Positions 3,569 through 40,139 of a stretch of 64,000 nucleotides of DNA are shown in pieces. The stretch lies in the NCBI GenBank assembly GCA_018262975.1, contig JADFDG010000008.1:24986-88985 (forward strand), read 5' to 3'. Made by a program: the position numbers and the translations under genes. Numbering within the stretch: the first letter of the stretch is position 1; every line of letters begins with the position of its first letter. Source of the DNA: Gammaproteobacteria bacterium. Its GTDB lineage: Bacteria; Pseudomonadota; Gammaproteobacteria; Pseudomonadales; JADFDG01. The notes beneath the pieces are model-generated. The model was not told where the DNA came from and made no database searches. It worked only from the letters and a program-made list of their open reading frames with translations.

Positions 3569-4858
3569 GTGGACCTGCTGCTGCTGTTCCTGCTGATCGT
3601 GCTCAACGGCGTGTTTGCCATGAGCGAGATCGCCATCGTCTCCTCGCGCAAGGCGCGCCTGCAACGCATGGCCGACGAGGACCATCCTGGCGCGGAAGCC
3701 GCGCTGGCGCTGCAGGAAAGTCCCACCCGCTTCCTGTCCACCATCCAGGTCGGCATCACCACCATCGGCATCCTCGCCGGCACCATCGGCGACGACGCAC
3801 TGGTGCAGCCGCTGTCGGCCTGGCTGCTCACCGTGCCGTCACTGGCGCCCTGGCACGAGGGCATCGCCCTGACCGTGGTGGTAATGGGGCTGACCTACTT
3901 TTCCGTGGTGGTCGGCGAACTGGTGCCCAAGCGACTGGCGCTGCTGGCACCGGAACGGGTGGCCGGCATCGTCGCCGCGCCGATGAACGTGCTGGCACGC
4001 GCGGCCTCGCCGGTGGTGACGCTGCTGTCGGTGTCCGGCGACCTGCTGCTGCGCCTGCTGAACGCCCGCGCCAAGGACGAGCCGCCGGTCACCAACGAGG
4101 AGATCAAGGTGCTGATGGAACAGGGCGCCGAGGCCGGCGTGTTCCATGCCGCCGAACGCCAGCTGGTAGCCAACGTGCTGCACCTGGACGACCAGACGGT
4201 GCTGGCCATCATGACGCCCCGCCAGGACATCGACGCGCTGGACCTGTCCGAAGGCGAGGATGCGCTGCGCGCGGCTATCGTCACCAGCCAGCACAGCCGC
4301 TTCGTGGTGTACCGCGAAGATTTCAGCAACATCGCCGGCATCCTGCACGCCAGCGACCTGCTGCGCCGGCTGCTGTCGGGCGAATCACCCGCGATCGGCG
4401 AGGCGGTGCGCCCGGCGCACTACGTGCCGGACACCATCACGCTGTCGCAACTGCTGGAAAACATGCGCCGCGCGCGCACCACCATCGCGCTGGTGGTGGA
4501 CGAATACGGCGACCTGCTGGGCATGGTGACGCTCAAGGACGTGATCGATGCGATCGTCGGCAACCTCGCCTTCAACGAGGGCGGCAACGACAACGAAGTG
4601 ATCGCACGCGACGACGGCTCCTGGCTGGTGGACGGCTCGGTGAGCATCGAACGCCTCAAGCAGGTGCTGGAAACCTCGTCGCTGCCCGGCGAGGAAGACG
4701 GCTACTTCCACACCGCCGCCGGATTCGTGCTGCACATGCTGGGGCACATCCCCAAGCCGGCCGAACACTTCGTGGCCGACGGCTACCGCTTCGAGGTGGT
4801 GGACATGGACGGCCACCGCATCGACAAGCTGCTGATTGCGGCGGTCGACGAAGAGTGA
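3569..4858 (+). CDS. HlyC/CorC-family membrane protein (DUF21 - CBS pair - CorC_HlyC)
   Basis: N-terminal TM region LLLLFLLIVLNGVFAMSEIAIVSSR (DUF21), CBS region, and a C-terminal transporter-associated domain. GTG at 3569 chosen; the upstream part of the ORF overlaps the dxs end. Confidence 0.85.
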   Translation: MDLLLLFLLIVLNGVFAMSEIAIVSSRKARLQRMADEDHPGAEAALALQESPTRFLSTIQVGITTIGILAGTIGDDALVQPLSAWLLTVPSLAPWHEGIALTVVVMGLTYFSVVVGELVPKRLALLAPERVAGIVAAPMNVLARAASPVVTLLSVSGDLLLRLLNARAKDEPPVTNEEIKVLMEQGAEAGVFHAAERQLVANVLHLDDQTVLAIMTPRQDIDALDLSEGEDALRAAIVTSQHSRFVVYREDFSNIAGILHASDLLRRLLSGESPAIGEAVRPAHYVPDTITLSQLLENMRRARTTIALVVDEYGDLLGMVTLKDVIDAIVGNLAFNEGGNDNEVIARDDGSWLVDGSVSIERLKQVLETSSLPGEEDGYFHTAAGFVLHMLGHIPKPAEHFVADGYRFEVVDMDGHRIDKLLIAAVDEE

Positions 4859-4865
4859 CCGCCTT

Positions 4866-5465
4866 TCAGCGGATGAGGTGCCCGAGCTTGCCCTTCTTCA
4901 CCGCCAGGTAATGCTCGTTGTGGGGATTCATCCCCACCTCGTGGGCGATGCGCTCCACCACCGTGTAGCCGAGCACCTCGAGCGCCTTCACCTTGCGCGG
5001 GTTGTTGGTCATCAACCGCAGTTTTTTCACGCCGGCATGATCGAGCATCACCCGGCAGATGCCGTAATCGCGCAGGTCGGCGTCGAAGCCGAGGTGCACG
5101 TTGGCCTCGACGGTGTCCTTGCCCTCGTCCTGCAACTTGTAGGCGCGGATCTTGTTGGTCAGGCCGATGCCGCGGCCTTCCTGGCGCAGGTAGAGGATGA
5201 TGCCGCGGCCTTCCTTGCCGATGCGCTCCATGGCGGCTTCCAGTTGAGGGCCACAGTCGCAGCGCAGGCTGAACAGCGCGTCGCCGGTCAGGCACTCGGA
5301 GTGGATGCGCACCAGCACCGGCTCGCCGCCGGTGGCGGCGTCGGAGACGTCGCCGAGCGTGAGCATGACGTGTTCCTTGCCCGTGGCGTCTTCTTCGAAG
5401 CCATGGAGCTCGAAAACGCCGAACGGGGTCGGCAGGCGGGCGGTTTCAACGTAGCGAAGGGTCAC
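4866..5465 (-). CDS. ribA: GTP cyclohydrolase II (stand-alone, catalytic motifs intact)
   Basis: 199 aa. [23 protein letters not shown] carries the zinc cysteines; [14 protein letters not shown] follows. Confidence 0.93.
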
Positions 5466-5559
5466 CGAGGGACAACCGGCCAGGCTTTAAGGGGCTGCGA
5501 TTGTAGCAGGGGGCGACGGCAGGGGAACTCGGGAAAACCGGCGGGATGCCCCGCGCCGC

Positions 5560-6096
5560 TCAGGCCAGCCAGGCGGCCGGCGCGAACCAGCCCGGCCAGA
5601 GCTGCTGCAGGATCACCAGCCACAGCGCCGCATACACCGCCGCCAGCAGGTCGTCGGCCATGATCCCGAAGCCGCCATGCACGTGGCGATCCAGCCAGCG
5701 GATCGGCCAGGGCTTGAGGATGTCGAACAGGCGGAACAACACAAAACCGGCCACCACGTTGGCCAGCGTCGGCGCGGCCACCACCATGGTCAGCAACAGG
5801 CCGGCGACCTCGTCCCAGACGATGCCGTTGTGGTCATGCACGCCCAGCTTGCGCGCCGACGCGCCGCAGGCCCACACGCCCACCACGATGGACGCCAGCA
5901 CCACCGCCAGGTAAGCGGGGAACGACAGCGTGAAGGCCAGCAGCAGGTACAGCGGCACCGCCGCCAGCGTGCCGAACGTGCCCGGCGCCTTCGGTGCCAG
6001 GCCGCTGCCGAAACCGAAGGCAATGAAGTGCGCCGGATCACGCAGGTCCACCGACACTTTCACCCGTTTCTCTTCCGGCACCAGGCTCACGTGCAT
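5560..6096 (-). CDS. pgpA: Phosphatidylglycerophosphatase A
   Basis: FGFGSGLAPKAPGTFGTLAAVP and the WDEVAG motif. ATG at 6096 overlaps the thiL stop (ATGA). Conserved thiL-pgpA order. Confidence 0.85.
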   Translation of the reverse strand: MHVSLVPEEKRVKVSVDLRDPAHFIAFGFGSGLAPKAPGTFGTLAAVPLYLLLAFTLSFPAYLAVVLASIVVGVWACGASARKLGVHDHNGIVWDEVAGLLLTMVVAAPTLANVVAGFVLFRLFDILKPWPIRWLDRHVHGGFGIMADDLLAAVYAALWLVILQQLWPGWFAPAAWLA

Positions 6097-7079
6097 CACT
6101 CCTCGTTGGCGAAATGGTCCCAGCCGCGGCGGCGCGGCTGCCACTCGCAGCCGTCCGTGCCCAGGCAGCGGATGCGACCATCATCGGTAATGCGGCCGAT
6201 CACCGCCACCGGCACCTGCGCGCTGGCAGCGGCAACGCGCAGCGCCGCCAGCGCCTGCACCGGCACGGTGAAACACAGTTCGTAATCGTCGCCGCCGGCG
6301 AGCTGGTGTTCCAGCGCCGCCTCGTCGCTGAGCGCTGCCAGCGAGGGCGAACGCGGCAACGCCGCCAGCTGCAACTCGGCACCCAGCGACAGGCCGGTCG
6401 CGCGCGACGATTCCGCGACGATATGCGCCAGGTCGCCGAGCAGGCCGTCGGACACGTCGATGCAGGCCGTCGCCACGCCACGCAATTCAACGCCCAGCGC
6501 CAGGCGCGGCACCGGCCGCAGCAGGCGCAGGATGGCCGGATCATGGCGATCGTGGTTGCCGGCCAGCCAGCGCTCGAGACCGAGCGCGGCATCGCCGGGC
6601 GTACCACTGACGCACACCAGGTCTCCGGCACGCGCGCCGGCGCGCCGCAGCGCTTCACCCGCGGGCACTTCGCCGAACACGGTCACGGTGATCGACAGCG
6701 GCCCGGACGTGGTGTCGCCGCCCACCAGCGGGCAATGCGCGGCGTCGGCCAGCGCGAGAAAGCCCTCGGCAAAGGTCGCCACCCAGGCGTCGTCCACCAG
6801 CGGCAGCGTCAGCGCCAGCACGCAGCCGCGCGGCGTGGCGCCCATGGCGGCGAGGTCGGAGAGATTGACGGCGAGCGCCTTCCAGCCAAGATCGGCCGGA
6901 GGCGTATCGCGCGGAAAGTGCACGCCTTCGACCAGCGTGTCGGTGCTGATCGCCAGCTGCATGCCCGGCGTGGGCGCGAGCAACGCGCAGTCATCGCCAC
7001 CGGCCAGCACCACGCCCGGCGCCCGCGCATCCTGCGCGCGGCGGAAGTGGCGGGCGATGAGGTCGAATTCGCCGGTCAT
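6096..7079 (-). CDS. thiL: Thiamine-monophosphate kinase
   Basis: 327 aa. EFDLIARHF...GGDDCALL...STDTLVEGVHF is the AIR-synthase-like N-terminus. nusB-thiL-pgpA synteny. Confidence 0.9.
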   Translation of the reverse strand: MTGEFDLIARHFRRAQDARAPGVVLAGGDDCALLAPTPGMQLAISTDTLVEGVHFPRDTPPADLGWKALAVNLSDLAAMGATPRGCVLALTLPLVDDAWVATFAEGFLALADAAHCPLVGGDTTSGPLSITVTVFGEVPAGEALRRAGARAGDLVCVSGTPGDAALGLERWLAGNHDRHDPAILRLLRPVPRLALGVELRGVATACIDVSDGLLGDLAHIVAESSRATGLSLGAELQLAALPRSPSLAALSDEAALEHQLAGGDDYELCFTVPVQALAALRVAAASAQVPVAVIGRITDDGRIRCLGTDGCEWQPRRRGWDHFANEE

Positions 7080-7107
7080 TGACGGGGACCAGGGCTGGCG
7101 GGAGCAA

Positions 7108-7131
7108 TCGGGGGCATGGCCCCCGCGCTAC
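7108..7131 (-). repeat. REP unit (single): TCGGGGGCATGGCCCCCGCGCTAC
   Basis: Matches the 24-nt family consensus. Lies between the thiL start and the nusB stop; its CTA (7128-7130) is the nusB stop codon. Confidence 0.85.
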
Positions 7132-7613
7132 ATGCGGCCGGCGAATTCGGCGGCGCGCAGCTTGCGGGCCACCTTGTCGAGCACACCGTTGACGAACTTG
7201 TGGCTGTCGTCGGTGGCGCCGAATTCCTTGGCCAGTTCGATGCCCTCGTTGATGGCCACGCGCGGCGGCACGTCGACGCGGTGCATCAGCTCGAACACGG
7301 CGATGCGCAGGATGGCGCGCTCGATCGGATCGAGTTCGCGCACCGGGCGGTCGAGGTAGAGCGCGTAGCCGTCATCGAGCGCGGCAGCACGCGCGACCAC
7401 TTCGCGCAGCAACTCGTGGAAGTAGCCGACATCGGTCTTGCGCATGTCGTTCTCGACGCGATAGTAAGCCTCGATCTCGTGCGGCTCGCCGCCACCGACC
7501 TGCCAGCTGTAAAGCGCCTGCAACGCGAAGCGGCGCGCCTTGTGGCGCGCCGACGGCGTGGTCGGCCAGGAGGCCGCGGGTTCTTTTCCGGTTTCGCTCA
7601 CGTTGACGCTCAC
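7128..7613 (-). CDS. nusB: Transcription antitermination factor NusB
   Basis: [16 protein letters not shown]...[12 protein letters not shown]...FVNGVLDKV. The stop codon TAG (7128-7130) lies inside a REP unit. Confidence 0.92.
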
Positions 7614-8083
7614 GAGATCTGCTTGAGCAGGCTGACCATCTCGATGGCGCCGGCAGCCGCTTCGGCGCCCTTGTTGCCGGCCTTGGTGCCGGAGCGCTCG
7701 ATGGCCTGTTCGATGGAATCCACCGTCAGCACGCCGAAGATCACCGGCAGGTCGGCGTTCAGGCCGACCGAGGCCAGGCCCTTGGCCGCCTCGCCCGCCA
7801 CGTACTCGAAGTGGGCGGTGCCGCCGCGGATCACCGCACCGAGGGCCACCACGGCGTCGAATTTCTTCGTCGCGGCGACGCGCTTGACCGCCAGCGGCAG
7901 TTCCCAGGCGCCCGGCACGCGGTACACGGTGATGTCCTCGTCCTTGATGCCGTGGCGCTTGAGGGTATCGATGGCGCCGGCCAGCAGGCTCTCCACCACG
8001 AAGGCGTTGAAGCGGGCGACGACGAGCGCGTAACGGCCGGAACAGTTGCGGAAGTCGCCTTCAACGGTGCGGATGGCGGTCAT
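7610..8083 (-). CDS. ribH: 6,7-dimethyl-8-ribityllumazine synthase
   Basis: [23 protein letters not shown]...[10 protein letters not shown]...[12 protein letters not shown]. Start taken at MTAIRTVEG (8083), 4 nt after the ribBA stop. The long N-terminal ORF extension is rejected. Confidence 0.93.
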
Positions 8084-8087
8084 GGAA

Positions 8088-9202
<1,115 letters not shown>

Positions 9203-9206
<4 letters not shown>

Positions 9207-9862
9207 TTCAGGAATCCGTGTTCGGCCAGCTTGGCCAGCGTGAGGCCACCGGCCTGCGGGTTCGCCGCCTGGTCGCCGAGCAGCAGGCGTTCCAGGTAGC
9301 GCGCGATGATGTCCACTTCGAGGTTCAGCTCGACGCCGGGTTTCCAGCGGTCGATGTTCGTTTCGGCGATGGTGTGCGGCACGATGTTCAGGTTGAACAC
9401 CGCACCCTCGACGGCGTTCACCGTCAGGCTGACGCCGTCGCAGCAGATGGAGCCCTTGTGGGCGATGTATTTCGCCAGCGCCGCCGGCGCCTCGATGCGG
9501 AACTGCACGGAGCGCGCGTCGGTGCTGCGCGACACCACGCGGCCCACGCCATCGACGTGGCCGCTGACCAGATGCCCGCCGAGGCGGGTGGTAGGCGTGA
9601 GCGCTTTCTCGAGGTTCACGCGATCACCGACCGCGAGCGAGCCGAGGGTGGTGCGCGCCAGCGTTTCGCCGGAGACGTCGGCGGTGAAGCCGTCGCCGGG
9701 CAGGGTGACGGCAGTCAGGCAGACGCCGTTCACCGCGATGGAGTCGCCCAGTTGCACGTCCGCCAGGCCCAGCTTGCCGGTACGGATGCGGAAGGTGCGG
9801 TCGCCGCCCCGGTTTTCGATGGCGGCAAGGGTGCCGACGGCCTGGATGATCCCGGTGAACAT
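9203..9862 (-). CDS. ribE: Riboflavin synthase (alpha chain)
   Basis: MFTGIIQAVGT...GDSIAVNGVCLT and the second-repeat motif GSICCDGVSLTV. Confidence 0.92.
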
Positions 9863-9873
9863 GGCGGATGGCG

Positions 9874-11019
9874 TTAAAGAGCGTGGCGGAAAAGGGCGAC
9901 CATTCTAATGTCAGGACCGACCCGGCGCACGTCCTGCAGGACCAGCGGGACCTTGCCGGCCATGTCGGCGATGGGAAGCTCCACCAGCGGGCGGGCCTCC
10001 GAACCCATCAGGACCGGCGCCGTGTACAGGACCAGTTCGTCGGCCAGCCCCGCCGCCACCACCGCCCCGGACAGCCGCGCACCGGCTTCCACCAGCAGTT
10101 CGTTGACCTCGCGCACCCCCAGTTCGGCCCACAGGGCGACCAGGTCGATGCCGCTGCCGGCGGCCGGCAACCCGATGACCTCGACGCCCCGGGCGCGCAG
10201 GCCCTCGGCCCTCTTGCCACCGGCCGGCGAGGCCAGCACGCGGTCCTCGGCGACCACCAGCACCTCGCCGCCGGGGCCGAACAGCGCGGCATCCGGCGTC
10301 ACGCGCAGCTCGCGGTCCACCAGCACGCGCAGCGGCTGGCGCACCCAGTCGTGGTCGTAGGTACCGTGCTCCCAGGTTTCCGGGCGCACGTTCATGGACG
10401 GGTTGTCGGCCAGCACCGTGCCGATGCCGGTGAGGATGGCGGCCGAGCGGGCGCGCAGGCGCTGCACGTCCTCGCGGGCCTCCGGGCCGGTGATCCACTT
10501 GCTCTCGCCGCTGGCCATGGCCGTGCGGCCATCGAGGCTGGCCCCGAGTTTCACGCGCACCCAGGGCCGGCCGCGGGTCATGCGGCTGATGAAACCGGGG
10601 TTCAGCGCGCGCGCCTCGCCTTCCAGCACGCCCACGTCCACGGCGATGCCGGCCGCACGCAGGCGGGCAATGCCGTTGCCGGCGACCTTGGGGTTGGGGT
10701 CCTGCATCGCCACCACCACGCGCGCCGGCTGCGCCGCGACCAGCGCATCGGCGCAGGGCCCGGTGCGACCGTGGTGACTGCAGGGCTCCAGGGTGACGTA
10801 GACGGTGGCGCCGCGCGCCTGCTCGCCGGCCTGGCGCAGCGCATGCACCTCGGCGTGCGGCTCGCCGGCGCGCAGGTGGAAGCCCTCGCCGACCACGGTG
10901 TCGCCCTGCACGACCACGCAGCCCACCCGCGGGTTGGGGTCGGTGGTGTACAGGCCGCGCGCCGCCAGTTGCAGGGCGCGAGACATGCAGGCGTGGTCCG
11001 CGGCAGAGATCGTCGTCAT
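9874..11019 (-). CDS. ribD: Bifunctional diaminohydroxyphosphoribosylaminopyrimidine deaminase / 5-amino-6-(5-phosphoribosylamino)uracil reductase
   Basis: Deaminase zinc motif HAEVHAL...PCSHHGRTGPC, followed by the reductase domain. Start at MTTISAADHACM (11019). Confidence 0.92.
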   Translation of the reverse strand: MTTISAADHACMSRALQLAARGLYTTDPNPRVGCVVVQGDTVVGEGFHLRAGEPHAEVHALRQAGEQARGATVYVTLEPCSHHGRTGPCADALVAAQPARVVVAMQDPNPKVAGNGIARLRAAGIAVDVGVLEGEARALNPGFISRMTRGRPWVRVKLGASLDGRTAMASGESKWITGPEAREDVQRLRARSAAILTGIGTVLADNPSMNVRPETWEHGTYDHDWVRQPLRVLVDRELRVTPDAALFGPGGEVLVVAEDRVLASPAGGKRAEGLRARGVEVIGLPAAGSGIDLVALWAELGVREVNELLVEAGARLSGAVVAAGLADELVLYTAPVLMGSEARPLVELPIADMAGKVPLVLQDVRRVGPDIRMVALFRHAL

Positions 11020-11062
11020 GCGGGCATTGTCGCGGGCATGGCCCGCTCGCCACAATGGGGCC

Positions 11063-11620
11063 ATGGAAACCCTCTATGCACTGCTCATCGGGATCGGCGT
11101 GGCCGCCGCCAGCGGCTTTCGCGTCTTCCTGCCGCTGTTCGGCCTGGCGCTGGCCGGCCGCTTCGGCGGCGTCACCGTCGGCGAGGATTTCGCCTGGCTG
11201 CTCAGCGACGGCGCCCTGGTGGCGCTGGGCACGGCGATGGTCGCGGAGATCGCCGGTTATTACCTGCCGCTGGTGGACCACATCCTCGACGCCTTCACCA
11301 CGCCGGCCGCCATCATGGCCGGCACGCTGGCGACGGCGGCGATGCTGGTCGGCATCGACGAGCCGGTATTGAAATGGGGCCTGGCGCTGATCGCCGGCGG
11401 CGGCGCGGCCGGCGTCGTGCAGGCGGGTTCGGTGGTCGCACGCGCAGCATCTACTGCCACGACCGGCGGGCTGGGCAACCCGGTGGTATCGACACTGGAG
11501 TGGATGGGGGCGCTGGTCACCACGCTGCTGGCCTTGCTGATGCCGGTGCTGGTGATCCTGCTGGTTGTGTGGCTGGCGTGGCGGCTGTGGCGCCGGCATA
11601 TGCGCCCACCCACACCCTGA
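11063..11620 (+). CDS. DUF4126-like small-residue-rich integral membrane protein
   Basis: 185 aa with about 5 hydrophobic Gly/Ala-rich segments (LLIGIGVAAASGFRVFLPLFGLALAG...). Divergent from ribD. ATG at 11063 chosen. Confidence 0.7.
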   Translation: METLYALLIGIGVAAASGFRVFLPLFGLALAGRFGGVTVGEDFAWLLSDGALVALGTAMVAEIAGYYLPLVDHILDAFTTPAAIMAGTLATAAMLVGIDEPVLKWGLALIAGGGAAGVVQAGSVVARAASTATTGGLGNPVVSTLEWMGALVTTLLALLMPVLVILLVVWLAWRLWRRHMRPPTP

Positions 11621-11695
11621 CCTCCCCTTTTGGGGGAAGGGACGCCGGCAGCCCGGCTGGTACGATGGCGCCACTTCCCTCCGGAGTTTCCCACG

Positions 11696-14245
11696 ATGGC
11701 ACGCCTTCCCGGACACGGCTTGTCCGCCCTGCTCGCTTCCTTCCTGTTGCTGGCCTCTTGCGGGGGCGGTGGCGGGGGCGGCGGTGGCGGGGCCCCCGAC
11801 GACGAAGTGCCGCGCGCATACGAAGAGCCGCGTGCCACCGCCACCGTGACCTCGCTGCTGAGCATCGAGGCGACCGGCGTAACCGGCGACGTCACCGTCA
11901 CCGATCGCGCAGGCCGCGCGACACTGATCAGTGCCGATGGCGTCACTGCGCTGCGCGACTACAACGCCGGCGACCTGCCGGGACTGGTGGTCAGCGCGCA
12001 GCCCGACGATCTCGAGTGCGTGCTGGAAGAATCGACCAGCTGGGCAATGCCGGACCATGCCGGGGTGCTGGCGCTGACCTGCGCGCCGGCGCTGGTGGAT
12101 GACGGCGTCGGCGTTTATGTCGAACGGCAACTGGTCACGCTGGTGCCCACGCGCCAAGGGCTGGCGGACGCCACGTTGCAGGGCCACATCGACGGCAGCA
12201 CCACCGTCGAACTGCGGCTGATCAAGGGCGTGCTGATGTTCGTCATGCCGGCGCTGACCAACGGACCCCACGACCTGATTTTCAGCCTCGGCGGGCGTGA
12301 TTACAGCCATACGTTCAACACGCAGAATCCCGCCGATATCGAAGACGTCCGCGCTTGGCTCGCTGACTACCAGGCCCGCTTGCTCGCGCACCTGACCGAC
12401 GTCAAGGCCGCGCTGCCGGAATCACGGCACACGGCCTTCGACGCAGCCGTTGGCGACATCGAGGACTCATTCGACGCCCTGTCCGCACAGCCGGATGCCG
12501 AGGCACTGGAGGCCGCACGATGGTTGCAAGCGAACGACCCGCTTGAGGATGCCGCGACATCGCGCATGCGCCCACGCACGGCCGACCCTGGCTTTGCGGT
12601 CTGCACGGTGGCCATGGGCAAGCTCATTGCACGCAAATTTGCCTTCATCGAGGCGATCAAGAGCGCCGGCGTTGCCGGCGTACTCGGTGTTGCCGCGGCC
12701 GGAACCCTGGGCGTCGCGGCAGCGCCTGTTGCGGCCATCCTCGGCGCCGGCGCCTTTCTGGGCTTTGGTGTCACCGATGGCCTGGTGGCCAGCATCGACA
12801 CGGTCATGCAGGTTTGCGTGACGCGGCGCGTAGAGTTCGCCTCAGCGAACCTTGAATCACGCATCGCATCCCGCAGCGCGACCCCTCCTGCCACCACGAC
12901 TGCCAAGCGCATCAATCTGCTGCACGGCGTCACGCGCAGCAGCACAGTTCGCGTGCGCGTCGAGCCGGACCCTGCCGTCATCAGCCTGGTCCGCTCGCTG
13001 CAGCAAATGCTGGCGCCGGTGTCCGGCGCGCTCAGCGACGAGATCACCAACGCGCTGTACACCGCCGACACGGTGCGCTACGAGAACTTCGATGCGGGCA
13101 GCCTGGTGATCAGCGCATTCAGTAGCCCGGGCGTGCCGATCAGCCGGAGCATGTCGCAAGGGGCGTCATCGGTCAGCTTCACCTTCTCGTTCGCCGGCAC
13201 GCCACCGACCGATCCGCAACCGTTCAGCCTGACACTGAGCGGCACGTCCGAAGGCGTGCCGCTATCCGTGCCGGTGCGCGGCGTACTGGTCGGCGGACCG
13301 CCGCTGGCCTACGACACCACCGAGGCCGTCAACGTCGACACGCCGCTCAAGAATGCCTACATGCAGGCCGACCACGCGGAGTCGTTCACGATGCTGGCAC
13401 AGCCGCGCCATGGAACGCTGCTGATCGAGGACAGCGAGACCGGGCGCTACACCTACACGCCCACCGCCGGCTACGAGGGCGAGGACACGTTCACGTTCCA
13501 GGCGAACAACGTCGCTGGCAGTTCGTTGACCGGCACGGTGACGCTGGTGGTGGCACCGTTCTGCCAGCTGACGGATCTTGGCGGCGGCGCCGCGCAGGAG
13601 TACTGCGAATATCCGTCACCGGACGGGGCCGAGGCGTTCGTGGCCACCGCGCGCAGTTACCAGAATGGGATCGCCACCAGCTTGCAGTACCGATTCGAAC
13701 CGGATCCCACCGAGGAAGCCCCGGTGCGGCTGATCACGACCTGGACAGTCCATTACTCGCCCGACGAGTATCCGGACGAGACGACGATGACGACCCACCA
13801 TGAAACAGTGATATACACGACGGCCGGACCGGACACCTCCTACCCGGTAGAAGAATCGGCCGAACTGATCATCGGAGGCGCCTATTTCTACATCAGCACG
13901 AACTACGCGACGTGGCAGGAGTCCAGCCTGCAGGCGTTGACACCAGGCAGCCACCTCGGACAGCCGGGAGCCTACTCACACAGCATCTTCTGGCGCGGAC
14001 TAATAGCGCGGCCCGAAGGTGAGCCGGCAGCCGACAGCGACTCGCCGCGCGTGAGTGTCATGGGTACGTTCCGCCCGGACAGCATCTTGTCCGGCGGGAC
14101 CGAAACGAACCTCTACTCGCAGCCGGCCCCCTTGGCGCTGGCGCCGACCCTCACGCAGGTCAAGGCCATCACGCCGCTCGACTTCAGTCGCGACATCGAC
14201 AAGCCGTTCAGCGAACTCTACGAACTGATGCGGGATTACCACTGA
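11696..14245 (+). CDS. Large orphan lipoprotein (849 aa): poly-Gly linker, central Gly/Ala hydrophobic segment, one cadherin/Ig-like domain
   Basis: Lipobox LLLAS-C followed by G10. ATG at 11696, with GGAG 10 nt upstream. The YTYTPTAGYEGEDTFTFQANN...GTVTLVV motif is typical of bacterial Ig/cadherin-like repeats. The rest matches no family I recognise. Confidence 0.75.
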   Translation: MARLPGHGLSALLASFLLLASCGGGGGGGGGGAPDDEVPRAYEEPRATATVTSLLSIEATGVTGDVTVTDRAGRATLISADGVTALRDYNAGDLPGLVVSAQPDDLECVLEESTSWAMPDHAGVLALTCAPALVDDGVGVYVERQLVTLVPTRQGLADATLQGHIDGSTTVELRLIKGVLMFVMPALTNGPHDLIFSLGGRDYSHTFNTQNPADIEDVRAWLADYQARLLAHLTDVKAALPESRHTAFDAAVGDIEDSFDALSAQPDAEALEAARWLQANDPLEDAATSRMRPRTADPGFAVCTVAMGKLIARKFAFIEAIKSAGVAGVLGVAAAGTLGVAAAPVAAILGAGAFLGFGVTDGLVASIDTVMQVCVTRRVEFASANLESRIASRSATPPATTTAKRINLLHGVTRSSTVRVRVEPDPAVISLVRSLQQMLAPVSGALSDEITNALYTADTVRYENFDAGSLVISAFSSPGVPISRSMSQGASSVSFTFSFAGTPPTDPQPFSLTLSGTSEGVPLSVPVRGVLVGGPPLAYDTTEAVNVDTPLKNAYMQADHAESFTMLAQPRHGTLLIEDSETGRYTYTPTAGYEGEDTFTFQANNVAGSSLTGTVTLVVAPFCQLTDLGGGAAQEYCEYPSPDGAEAFVATARSYQNGIATSLQYRFEPDPTEEAPVRLITTWTVHYSPDEYPDETTMTTHHETVIYTTAGPDTSYPVEESAELIIGGAYFYISTNYATWQESSLQALTPGSHLGQPGAYSHSIFWRGLIARPEGEPAADSDSPRVSVMGTFRPDSILSGGTETNLYSQPAPLALAPTLTQVKAITPLDFSRDIDKPFSELYELMRDYH

Positions 14246-14252
14246 TTCGCAG

Positions 14253-14282
14253 GTAGAGTCGGGGGCATGGCCCCCTCTCTAC
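14253..14282 (-). repeat. REP unit extended to a near-perfect 30-nt palindrome (GTAGAGTCGGGGGCATGGCCCCCTCTCTAC)
   Basis: Lies between the convergent lipoprotein gene (stop 14245) and nrdR (stop 14293). Confidence 0.85.
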
Positions 14283-14292
14283 ATGGGGCGGG

Positions 14293-14748
14293 TCAAGTGC
14301 CCTTTTCGAGGCGCTCGACTTCCTGGCGGAATTCGTTGATGTCCTTGAAGTTGCGGTATACCGAGGCGAAGCGCACGTAGGCAACTTCGTCCAGCTTGCG
14401 CAACTCGGCCATCACCGCCTCGCCGACTACCGATGACGCCACTTCGCGCTCGCCGGTGGCGCGCAGCCGCGCACCGATGTGGCTGATGGCCGCCTCGACC
14501 TGCTCCACGCTGACCGGCCGCTTCTGGATGGCCAGCTGGATGGACGCGCGCAGCTTTTCCTCGTCGAAGGGCACGCGCGTGCCGTCGCGCTTGACGATGC
14601 GCGGCATCACCAGCTCGGCGGTCTCGTAGGTGGTGAAGCGCTCGTTGCACGCCTGGCATTCGCGACGCCGGCGCACCTGCGCCCCGTCGGCGACGAGGCG
14701 CGAGTCGATGACCTTGGTGTCGTCGGCGTTGCAGAACGGGCAGTGCAT
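14293..14748 (-). CDS. nrdR: Transcriptional repressor NrdR
   Basis: [17 protein letters not shown]...[10 protein letters not shown] zinc ribbon plus ATP-cone. Confidence 0.95.
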
Positions 14749-14754
14749 CGCCGG

Positions 14755-16011
14755 TTACGCGCCGTAAACCGGGAAGCGCTTGCAGATCGCCTCGACCTTG
14801 CCACGCACCGCCGCGATCGTGTTCTCGTCGTTGATGTTGTCGAGCACGTCGCAGATCCAGCCGGCCAGCTCCTTCGCCTCGGCTTCCTTGAAGCCGCGGG
14901 TGGTGATGGCCGGGGTGCCAATGCGGATGCCGGAAGTCACGAACGGCGAGCGCGGGTCGTTCGGCACCGCGTTCTTGTTGACGGTGATGTGCGCCTTGCC
15001 GAGCGCGGCATCCGCGTCCTTGCCGGTGATGTCCTTGCTGACCAGGTCGAGCAGGAACAGGTGGTTGTCGGTGCCGCCGGACACGATGTTGAAGCCGCGC
15101 GACTGGAACACGCCGCACATGGCGCGCGCATTGGCGACCACCTGCTTCTGGTAGTCCTTGAACGCCGGCTCCATCGCTTCCTTGAAGCACACGGCCTTGG
15201 CGGCGATCACGTGCATCAGCGGGCCGCCCTGGCCGCCCGGGAACACCGCACTGTTCAGCTTCTTCTCGATCTCCTCGTTTTTCTTGGCGAGGATCAGGCC
15301 GGAACGCGGGCCACGCAGCGTCTTGTGCGTGGTCGTGGTGGTGACGTCGGCGATCTGGCAGGGGTTCGGGTAGACGCCGGCGGCGACCAGGCCCGCCACG
15401 TGCGCCATGTCGACCATCAGGTAGGCGCCGACGGAATCGGCGATCTCGCGGAACTTCTGCCAGTCGACCACGCGCGAATAGGCGGAGAAGCCGGCGATCA
15501 CCATCTTCGGCTTGTGCTCCTGCGCCAGGCGCATCGCCTCGTCGTAGTCGATCTCGCCGGTGGCCGGGTTCAGGCCGTACTGCACCGAGTTGTAGATCTT
15601 GCCGGAGAAGTTGACCTTGGCGCCGTGGGTCAGGTGGCCGCCGTGGGCCAGCGACATGCCGAGCACGGTGTCACCCGGATTCAGCAGCGCCATGAACACG
15701 GCGATGTTGGCCTGCGAGCCCGCGTGCGGCTGCACGTTGGCGTAGTCGGCGCCGAACAGCGCCTTGGCGCGGTCGATGGCCAGTTGCTCGACCACGTCCA
15801 CGTACTCGCAGCCGCCGTAGTAGCGCTTCTGCGGGTAACCCTCGGCGTACTTGTTGGTCAGCACCGAACCCTGGGCCTCGAGCACGCGCGGCGAGGTGTA
15901 GTTTTCCGAGGCGATCAGCTCGATGTGCGCTTCCTGGCGCTGCTTCTCGCCCTGCATGGCGTTGAACAGGTCGGCATCGTAGGAAGCGATCGTCATGTCT
16001 TTGCTGAACAT
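14755..16011 (-). CDS. glyA: Serine hydroxymethyltransferase
   Basis: 418 aa. [19 protein letters not shown] and the PLP-lysine region [14 protein letters not shown]. Confidence 0.97.
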
Positions 16012-16068
16012 CGGGGGGACCTCGGCTGGCTCCGGCGGGCGGGCATGGGGTGGGCGGGGACGGCGCGC

Positions 16069-16074
16069 ATTCTA
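16069..16074 (-). promoter_or_regulatory. Candidate -10 box TAGAAT plus GC-rich discriminator (TAGAATGCGCGCC) for glyA
   Basis: About 58 nt upstream of the glyA ATG on the minus strand. The same 10-mer is seen at three other loci. Confidence 0.45.
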
Positions 16075-16097
16075 CCCCACGCGGCCCTTTCCCACAT

Positions 16098-16168
16098 GTA
16101 GCTAGGGGGCCATGCCCCCGATGGTGGCGTCGCGGGGCGAACCGTCGGGGGCATGGCCCCCTCCCTAC
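16098..16168. repeat. REP inverted doublet (16098-16121 plus-oriented, 16145-16168 minus-oriented), with a further degenerate copy near 16186-16212
   Basis: GTAGCTAGGGGGCCATGCCCCCGA ... TCGGGGGCATGGCCCCCTCCCTAC. Lies in the glyA-ettA divergent intergenic region. Confidence 0.85.
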
Positions 16169-16213
16169 AGGGAGCGGGTCCGGGCGCGGGGGCATAGGGG
16201 CCCCGCGACAGGG

Positions 16214-16219
16214 TAGAAT
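16214..16219 (+). promoter_or_regulatory. Candidate -10 box TAGAAT plus GC-rich discriminator (TAGAATGCGCCCC) for ettA
   Basis: 39 nt upstream of the ettA ATG. Confidence 0.45.
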
Positions 16220-16257
16220 GCGCCCCCTCACCCCCTCCCCGTCATACCGGTACCCCG

Positions 16258-17922
<1,665 letters not shown>

Positions 17923-17947
17923 ACGGGCGCCGGGGCGGGATCGGGAG

Positions 17948-18050
17948 TCGGGGGCATGGCCCCCTCTCTACGAGGAGCCCTGTAGCGAGGGGGCCATGCC
18001 CCCGATATATTGGGCACCAAGCAGCATCGGGGGCGTGGCCCCCTCTCTAC
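17948..18050. repeat. REP triplet (17948-17971 minus, 17982-18005 plus, 18027-18050 minus)
   Basis: Three units in alternating orientation between the ettA stop and the PilZ start. Confidence 0.88.
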
Positions 18051-28479: not shown

Positions 28480-28529
28480 TCGGGGGCATGGCCCCCTCTC
28501 TACATGTAGAGAGGGGGCCATGCCCCCGA
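28480..28529. repeat. REP head-to-head doublet forming a perfect 50-bp palindrome
   Basis: TCGGGGGCATGGCCCCCTCTCTAC-AT-GTAGAGAGGGGGCCATGCCCCCGA, between convergent stops at 28469 and 28538. Confidence 0.92.
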
Positions 28530-28537
28530 CCCATCGC

Positions 28538-33352: not shown

Positions 33353-33419
33353 GTCGAGAGGGGGCCATGCCCCCGATCATGTGAAAGCAAAAGCGTCGGG
33401 GGCATGGCCCCCTCTCTAC
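33353..33419. repeat. REP inverted doublet (33353-33376 plus with a GTCG head, 33396-33419 minus)
   Basis: Lies between the tRNA-Leu promoter and the MCE gene. CTA at 33416-33418 is the MCE-gene stop codon. Confidence 0.88.
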
Positions 33420-40072: not shown

Positions 40073-40139
40073 GTAGAGAGGGGGCCTTGCCCCCGACCGG
40101 TAAAGGGCAAGAGCGTCGGGGGCATGGCCCCCTCTCTAC
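40073..40139. repeat. REP inverted doublet (40073-40096 plus, 40116-40139 minus)
   Basis: Right border of the RCC1 islet, just downstream of the hflC stop. Confidence 0.88.

Follow-up and report, generated by a model that had tools for sequence, protein, structure and literature searches.

What occupies the interval between two core genes when their operon is interrupted, and do the occupants belong together? The question is raised by the window, a 64,000-nucleotide stretch of contig JADFDG010000008.1 (assembly GCA_018262975.1) from an uncultured activated-sludge gammaproteobacterium whose genome assembly is 3.3 Mb. In the nrdR–ribD operon arrangement, ribD lies immediately 3′ of nrdR on the same strand. 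The window lacks this arrangement, as a sequence-only reading of the DNA had noted: between ribD and nrdR, both on the minus strand, lie 3.2 kb of opposite-strand genes. The first of these encodes a membrane protein of the DUF4126 family and the second an 849-residue lipoprotein. That reading proposed that the two could form a two-component envelope module. We find that they are two unrelated, independent accessory genes, not a conserved pair. Our reading as a whole places them in a variable ribD–nrdR slot and takes the second gene to encode a fast-evolving lipoprotein, probably located at the outer membrane or surface; we consider it somewhat better than even.

Occupants of the slot and their relationship

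We compared the interval in the window's own genome (G000), seven species of the same genus (G001 to G007) and two metagenome contigs, L019 (Logan) and L045. In G003, G005 and G007 the order is glyA–nrdR–ribD–ribE–ribBA, with nrdR immediately adjoining ribD. Comparison with these relatives therefore upholds the view that accessory DNA interrupts the pair in the window. In four other species (G001, G002, G004 and G006) DUF4126 alone stands between ribD and nrdR, on the opposite strand. These copies are 74–85% identical to the window copy, and the gap to nrdR is 28–94 bp in three of the four. L045 likewise carries DUF4126 alone, 8 bp from nrdR. DUF4126 together with the lipoprotein gene, the latter placed between DUF4126 and nrdR, occurs only in G000 and L019. 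The nrdR of L019 is 94.7% identical to that of the window, the highest value among the relatives compared. No relative of the lipoprotein is encoded in the same-genus genomes. The site is thus a variable slot within the core-gene cluster glyA–nrdR/ribD–ribE–ribBA.

The locus recurs in many activated-sludge metagenomes. Contigs of sludge runs X10 and X12 join 11515, at the 3′ end of DUF4126, to 14309, at the 3′ end of nrdR. The junction represents the state lacking the lipoprotein gene and belongs to a co-occurring related species about 12% diverged. From these sequences, DUF4126 appears to be the older resident of the site and the lipoprotein gene a later, lineage-restricted addition. The slot takes cargo on the other side of DUF4126 too, since in G002 a gene for a 550-residue hybrid histidine kinase/response regulator lies between DUF4126 and ribD (L021 8192–9844, G002:C40). 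In G004 the space from DUF4126 to nrdR contains an open reading frame (ORF) of about 139 residues whose N-terminus forms a hydrophobic anchor (L023 1552–1970, G004:C163). This ORF has the same position as the 849-residue gene and is unrelated to it.

Could the two genes nevertheless form an obligate module, co-transcribed and with physically interacting products? They share an orientation, a scan of the interval between them found no promoter or terminator consensus, L019 has the identical arrangement, and the hydrophobic parts of both proteins are Gly/Ala-rich. The spacer measures 75 nt, one less than first counted. Set against these features is the distribution of each gene. The five lineages in which DUF4126 stands alone at the site do not support the proposal, and DUF4126 is also solitary in other phyla, with convergent neighbours in Planctomycetaceae and Larkinella. 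None of eight neighbourhoods of lipoprotein relatives (L037 to L044) holds DUF4126. They contain no nrdR, no ribD and no neighbour common to the eight, and the lipoprotein gene is usually solitary, with a long spacer upstream of it. The pair is not co-conserved elsewhere; its sole co-occurrence, in L019, is in a close relative at the same position and so reflects shared descent. Within the spacer, the TCCGGAGTTT stretch is conserved in an alignment of the window with L019, so that the lipoprotein gene keeps a ribosome-binding region of its own. A relationship between DUF4126 and the hydrophobic hairpin of the lipoprotein (described below) was rejected by hhalign profile comparison, at a probability of 0.3%. 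Two metatranscriptome runs from a study holding the locus were inspected, and neither covers it. We regard an obligate module as very unlikely.

The first gene is a typical full-length DUF4126 member, as had been suspected. It matches PF13548 at E 2e-45 (155 bits against a cutoff of 27.5) over profile positions 1–175 of 175. It stands out from other DUF4126 proteins only in lying between ribD and nrdR, a position peculiar to this genus. A search at E≤1e-10 gave more than 1100 relatives, of which the closest named ones come from gammaproteobacterial metagenome-assembled genomes. The product is probably located in the inner membrane. Two papers name DUF4126 in passing, and the family has no known function. 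One relative, 65% identical, lies in an entirely different neighbourhood (L046 4543–5558), where its start is the last base of an upstream DUF8410 gene. This 1-nt overlap suggests translational coupling, and DUF8410 may be a true partner of DUF4126 in other lineages.

The lipoprotein and its family

The 849-residue ORF starts with MARLPGHGLSALLASFLLLAS-C22, followed by exactly ten glycines, as the sequence-only reading had described. Its signal peptide ends in a lipobox of the form [LVI][ASTVI][GAS]C, as in lipoproteins. The single cadherin/Ig-like module that had been placed at about 13300–13557 is borne out as a Big_9 domain, the only Pfam domain above its cutoff in the protein. Cadherin_5 (PF17892), which overlaps the Big_9 match, scores 25.3 bits, below its cutoff of 26.5. 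Outside this module the protein matches no described family in Pfam, NCBIfam or PDB profile searches of the core, again as first stated.

An AlphaFold2 (AF2) model built with a 55-sequence alignment reached a predicted local distance difference test score (pLDDT) of 72.5 and a predicted template modelling score (pTM) of 0.67, with residues 40–320 and 360–660 mostly above 85. A run with two sequences was unusable (pLDDT 32). The model is a confident multi-domain one, in which the hairpin and the C-terminus are of low confidence. Foldseek of the whole model against PDB and BFVD gave generic multi-Ig chains only, with template modelling (TM) scores of at most 0.18. An alpha-2-macroglobulin-like lipoprotein was also considered and rejected: no CxEQ thioester motif surrounds any of the seven cysteines, and TM-scores to alpha-2-macroglobulin are 0.16–0.18.

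With Big_9/cadherin-like multi-Ig surface proteins and adhesins the window protein shares a Big_9 domain above the Pfam cutoff and a string of beta-sandwiches in the AF2 model, and the fold searches return invasin, SbsB and SraP, all generic Ig chains. It differs from such adhesins in having a single Big_9 domain, not long tandem arrays, and a helical hairpin domain that they lack. It is also predicted to be lipid-anchored, whereas adhesins are secreted by type 1 or type 5 secretion systems. One other ORF in the window's genome matches the lipoprotein, and only in its Big_9 domain. It encodes 1503 residues with at least four Big_9-like repeats and lies on another contig (G000:C10:4572–5942).

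The description of the lipoprotein as an orphan holds for close homologues and fails for remote ones. Among 5.8 billion proteins, the sole full-length homologue is P0004, with 838 residues, 41% identity and a matching lipobox and Gly10. GTDB representative genomes, scanned with back-translated patterns of the lipoprotein, yielded no relative. We then built a profile from residues 44–534 of the two homologous proteins and searched it against 1.84 billion cluster representatives. At E≤1e-3 this returned 81 clusters, of which 15 reached E≤1e-10. The alignments cover residues ~140–534, and most of the matched proteins are 500–880 residues long. The named members are all "hypothetical protein", for example one from Alcanivorax quisquiliarum. 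Among 55 aligned members, 51 have the lipobox cysteine and 26 have Big_9. The C-termini vary, with Fib_succ_major, Lcl_C and Sortilin/BNR among the add-ons, and many members carry a poly-Gly/Ser run after the cysteine. Pfam covers only Big_9 and the C-terminal add-ons of the family and has no model for the conserved core. NCBIfam, PADLOC and PHROGs gave no meaningful match to the 849-residue protein, and a PDB profile search gave no match for its core.

The window protein has every feature that defines the family: a lipobox, an Ig-like domain, a helical domain with the motif A..L.AN, a Cys-bracketed hydrophobic hairpin and a beta domain. The motif is nearly invariant in the family core, as is N280. 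Cys303 and Cys374 are both present in 37 of the 55 members, both absent in 17 and single in one. This both-or-neither pattern is expected of a disulfide pair, so a disulfide between the two is predicted. The sequences thus point to an unnamed and rare family, present in other phyla as well, whose core no domain database describes.

The table lists the features of the locus. At its longest, the ribD ORF shares 2 nt with the start codon of DUF4126, which lies on the opposite strand. Since tblastn alignments to relatives begin at ORF residues 3–23, the true ribD start is probably Met16 at 11019. This start would leave about 43 bp for two divergent promoters. In the window, ribD is cut off from the nrdR promoter. 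An Rfam scan of 4000–18000 found no RNA element, for example no flavin mononucleotide (FMN) riboswitch. The repetitive extragenic palindromic (REP) element that had been reported beyond the lipoprotein gene is confirmed, with the sequence GTAGAGTCGGGGGCATGGCCCCCTCTCTAC. It is one of six copies of a REP-like family in the window, where chance alone would give none. The other five (GGGGGCATGGCCCCCTCTCTAC) lie at 17942–17971, 18021–18050, 28506–28535, 33390–33419 and 40110–40139. Many metagenome contigs rearrange or break at the copy next to nrdR.

Table. Features of the ribD–nrdR interval and its flanks, in order of position in the window.
Feature	Position	Strand	Basis
ribBA	8088-9206	-	ORF
ribE	9203-9862	-	ORF
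ribD, left flank	9874-11064	-	ORF list
DUF4126 polytopic membrane protein, 185 residues (P0001)	11063-11620	+	ORF, Pfam PF13548
Spacer, 75 nt, with TCCGGAGTTT ribosome-binding region before the lipoprotein ATG	11621-11695	+	
Lipoprotein gene, 849 residues (P0002)	11696-14245	+	ORF
Signal peptide with lipobox L-A-S-C (Cys22)	11696-11761	+	Translation; Cys in 51 of 55 members; P0004 starts alike
Ten-glycine tether, residues 23-32	11762-11791	+	Sequence; pLDDT <50
Ig-like beta-sandwiches D1 (46-137) and D2 (138-212)	11831-12331	+	AF2 m6bd3dd4c417e, pLDDT 85-97, all beta; generic Ig fold matches
Helical domain, residues 213-374 (helices 218-373), with A..L.AN and Cys303/Cys374 brackets	12332-12817	+	AF2, family alignment
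Gly/Ala-rich hydrophobic helical hairpin, residues 322-365, turn at Pro344	12659-12790	+	Kyte-Doolittle; low pLDDT
Beta domain D3 with helical insert, residues 375-533	12818-13294	+	AF2 pLDDT 85-95; inside family profile
Big_9 bacterial Ig domain, residues 535-617	13298-13546	+	PF17963 E 4.4e-10, 40.8 bits against cutoff 23.6
Small beta unit, residues 622-669			AF2 model
Lineage-specific C-terminal region, residues 622-849 and stop; holds low-GC patch	13559-14245	+	25-26% identity to P0004
Tail, residues 670-849, pLDDT <50			AF2 model
REP-type perfect hairpin, 30 nt, between the convergent lipoprotein gene and nrdR	14253-14282	.	
nrdR, right flank	14293-14748	-	ORF; 87-95% identical in relatives
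glyA	14755-16011	-	ORF

Divergence of the lipoprotein gene

The lipoprotein gene and its flank differ sharply in rate between the window and L019. For nrdR, nonsynonymous divergence (dN) is 0.025 and synonymous divergence (dS) is 0.46, at 95% amino acid identity. For the whole lipoprotein, dN is 0.66 and dS 1.09, at 39–41% identity. The dN of the lipoprotein exceeds the dS of its own flanking genes. Across its domains the ratio dN/dS (omega) is 0.44–0.70, rising to about 1.0 in D3, and the C-terminus is 25–26% identical. This divergence reflects either very fast change driven by selection or two alleles older than the species split.

A second line of evidence comes from a 1674-nt contig of sludge run X9. 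It is 98.5% identical to the window over 11626–12158 and 88% identical over 12708–13299. Between them, 12159–12707 (residues ~155–337) is replaced by 549 unlike letters of equal length. Pieces of DUF4126 and nrdR in that run are 95–100% identical to the window. Judged by its sequence, the contig appears to be a mosaic allele, of the kind that usually marks recombination between allele classes at a locus under diversifying selection.

The base composition of the gene bears on its origin. Low GC (55–60%) had been reported for parts of it. This holds for one patch of about 250 bp (13700–13950, 54–58% GC) and not for the gene overall, which has 66.3% GC against 66.8% for the genome. A foreign-GC island is ruled out, since the gene matches the genome mean. 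GC at third codon positions (GC3) is 82%, against 88–96% in neighbouring genes, with strong coding periodicity.

These data can be set against the possibility that relaxed constraint lets the gene drift and that it has little if any function. An omega of ~0.5–1.0 across domains, a C-terminus that is 25% identical and poorly modelled, a GC3 below that of the neighbours and the low-GC patch would all suit such drift. Decay of this kind is hard to square with a 2.5-kb frame that is intact in both lineages and in metagenome contigs, with the coding periodicity at GC3 82%, with architecture, cysteine pairs and motifs kept across a family reaching other phyla, and with domains that AF2 models confidently. 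We judge it quite unlikely.

Location of the lipoprotein and its hairpin

The hairpin is the most unusual part of the protein. It consists of two helices of about 21 residues joined at Pro344, with the repeats G352xxxG356, G358xxxG362 and A346xxxG350 and the ladder G325/G328/G331/G336/G339. The Kyte-Doolittle mean over 19 residues reaches a maximum of 1.92, and most family members have an equivalent central hydrophobic segment. Insertion energies on the Hessa apparent-free-energy scale are a crude estimate. The best 19-residue segment of the hairpin gives +2.55 kcal/mol, the family median is +3.3, and one of 56 members falls below zero; the last DUF4126 helix gives −3.3 on the same scale. The hairpin is thus marginally hydrophobic, since its summed insertion energy is positive. 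This would fit a segment that SecYEG lets through and that afterwards becomes part of a membrane or a protein interface.

We know of no Lol retention signal in the glycines at +2 to +4, and sorting to the outer membrane is therefore the default expectation. In several remote family members the lipobox cysteine is directly followed by an acidic run, for example QKEEIEEN and SLFEDNEDD. In Bacteroidota, the lipoprotein export signal K-(D/E)2 or SDDDD drives surface exposure (PMC5080379). The remote members in which K, Q or S and then acidic residues follow the cysteine suggest a possible likeness to this signal. The window protein differs in having Gly10 after the cysteine and in being gammaproteobacterial. 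To our knowledge, no such export signal exists in gammaproteobacteria.

The nearest likeness for the hairpin is found in glycine-zipper lipoproteins. In SlyB, YfgH and OsmB, hairpins of two transmembrane helices (2TM) are embedded in the outer membrane, where they underpin ring-like oligomers (bioRxiv 10.64898/2025.12.22.696046). The window protein shares with SlyB, YfgH and OsmB (PF05433/PF13488) an N-terminal lipid anchor and a marginally hydrophobic hairpin rich in small-xxx-small repeats (GxxxG/AxxxG). Its two adjacent helices with GxxxG and small-xxx-small repeats are those of a glycine zipper. SlyB, YfgH and OsmB differ in their length of ~70–180 residues and in a hairpin close to the anchor. 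In the window protein the hairpin lies mid-chain, in a helical domain between Ig-like domains, and is bracketed by a covarying Cys pair. Among the hairpins of 22 relatives, two match Gly-zipper_Omp weakly (best E 0.0067). Membership in the glycine-zipper 2TM lipoprotein family is not established.

Two other placements of the hairpin have to be weighed. It could be a true transmembrane hairpin of the inner membrane, in an inner-membrane lipoprotein with two large periplasmic domains flanking it. Two hydrophobic helices of ~21 residues with a tight Pro turn, and the Kyte-Doolittle maximum, would allow this, and the covarying cysteines in both flanking parts would put both outside the cytoplasm. 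The insertion energies argue otherwise, being positive in 55 of 56 members on the crude scale used, and in Lol sorting a glycine at +2 is not known to act as an inner-membrane retention signal. Moreover, passage of such helices across the inner membrane is exemplified by glycine-zipper lipoproteins of the outer membrane (bioRxiv 10.64898/2025.12.22.696046). An inner-membrane hairpin is unlikely on this evidence. The hairpin could also be shielded until it inserts into a target membrane, making the lipoprotein a membrane-damaging pore former comparable to colicin-type or glycine-zipper toxins. In the AF2 model it is surrounded by an amphipathic helical bundle, and a few relatives weakly match MccV, Bacteriocin_IIc or Gly-zipper models. 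These matches are not significant, the lipid anchor speaks against release, no immunity-like small gene adjoins the lipoprotein gene here or in the eight other neighbourhoods, and PADLOC, PHROG and PDB gave no matches. A pore former is highly improbable.

Several observations count against the reading that we prefer, of two independent accessory genes of which the second encodes a fast-evolving outer-membrane or surface lipoprotein. In a tree of glyA, nrdR, ribD and ribE, the DUF4126-bearing genomes are not a clade, so the history of DUF4126 gain and loss is uncertain. Ancestral presence with at least two losses is the likeliest account, and recombination is possible. The two genes are co-oriented and 75 nt apart with no terminator detected, and may be co-transcribed here. 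With dS saturated, an omega of ~0.6 is as compatible with relaxed constraint as with positive selection. The Pfam glycine-zipper models (PF05433, PF13488 and PF13441) have no matches to the P0002 hairpin at E≤10. The hairpin also lies 300 residues from Cys22 in an 849-residue protein, unlike the small SlyB and YfgH with their adjacent hairpins. That the protein is lipidated, sorted to the outer membrane and exposed at the surface, and that its hairpin inserts into a membrane, are all predictions.

The preferred reading would run as follows. DUF4126 would be a long-standing occupant of the site across the genus, lost in some species, and the lipoprotein gene would have been added 3′ of it only in the window lineage and its nearest relative. 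The lipoprotein would be lipidated, and its glycines at positions +2 to +4 would let Lol carry it to the outer membrane. Its hairpin would be too weakly hydrophobic to stop in SecYEG. It would then dip into the outer membrane or pack hairpin-to-hairpin in an oligomer, as in SlyB and YfgH, while the Ig-like stalk would present the variable C-terminal part. The divergence and mosaic alleles would reflect diversifying selection on an exposed envelope protein, for example by phage, predators or cell–cell recognition. DUF4126 and the lipoprotein would not need each other. From sequence and model together, the lipoprotein is most likely a fast-evolving binding or scaffold protein, anchored in the outer membrane or at the surface, with a hairpin that touches the membrane or serves in oligomerisation.

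A more specific proposal is tentative, and we hold it to be possible rather than probable. In it, the protein represents an undescribed envelope-lipoprotein family in which a Cys-bracketed, possibly disulfide-clamped, mid-chain glycine-zipper hairpin enters the outer membrane or drives ring-like oligomers. Pressure from phage or predators would make its exposed parts hypervariable, by way of recombination between allele classes. Such a protein would be a large stalked counterpart of SlyB and YfgH. Multi-Ig envelope lipoproteins and glycine-zipper lipoproteins are both known kinds; the rare family itself is undescribed. The finding has no bearing on a long-standing open question. It adds a rare family with a confident multi-domain model and an unusual mid-chain, Cys-bracketed glycine-zipper hairpin. 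If the hairpin enters the outer membrane, the emerging class of glycine-zipper outer-membrane lipoproteins typified by SlyB and YfgH would extend to large stalked proteins. Being hypervariable in sludge populations, the gene is also a candidate for a strain-level marker or a determinant of phage interaction in wastewater communities.

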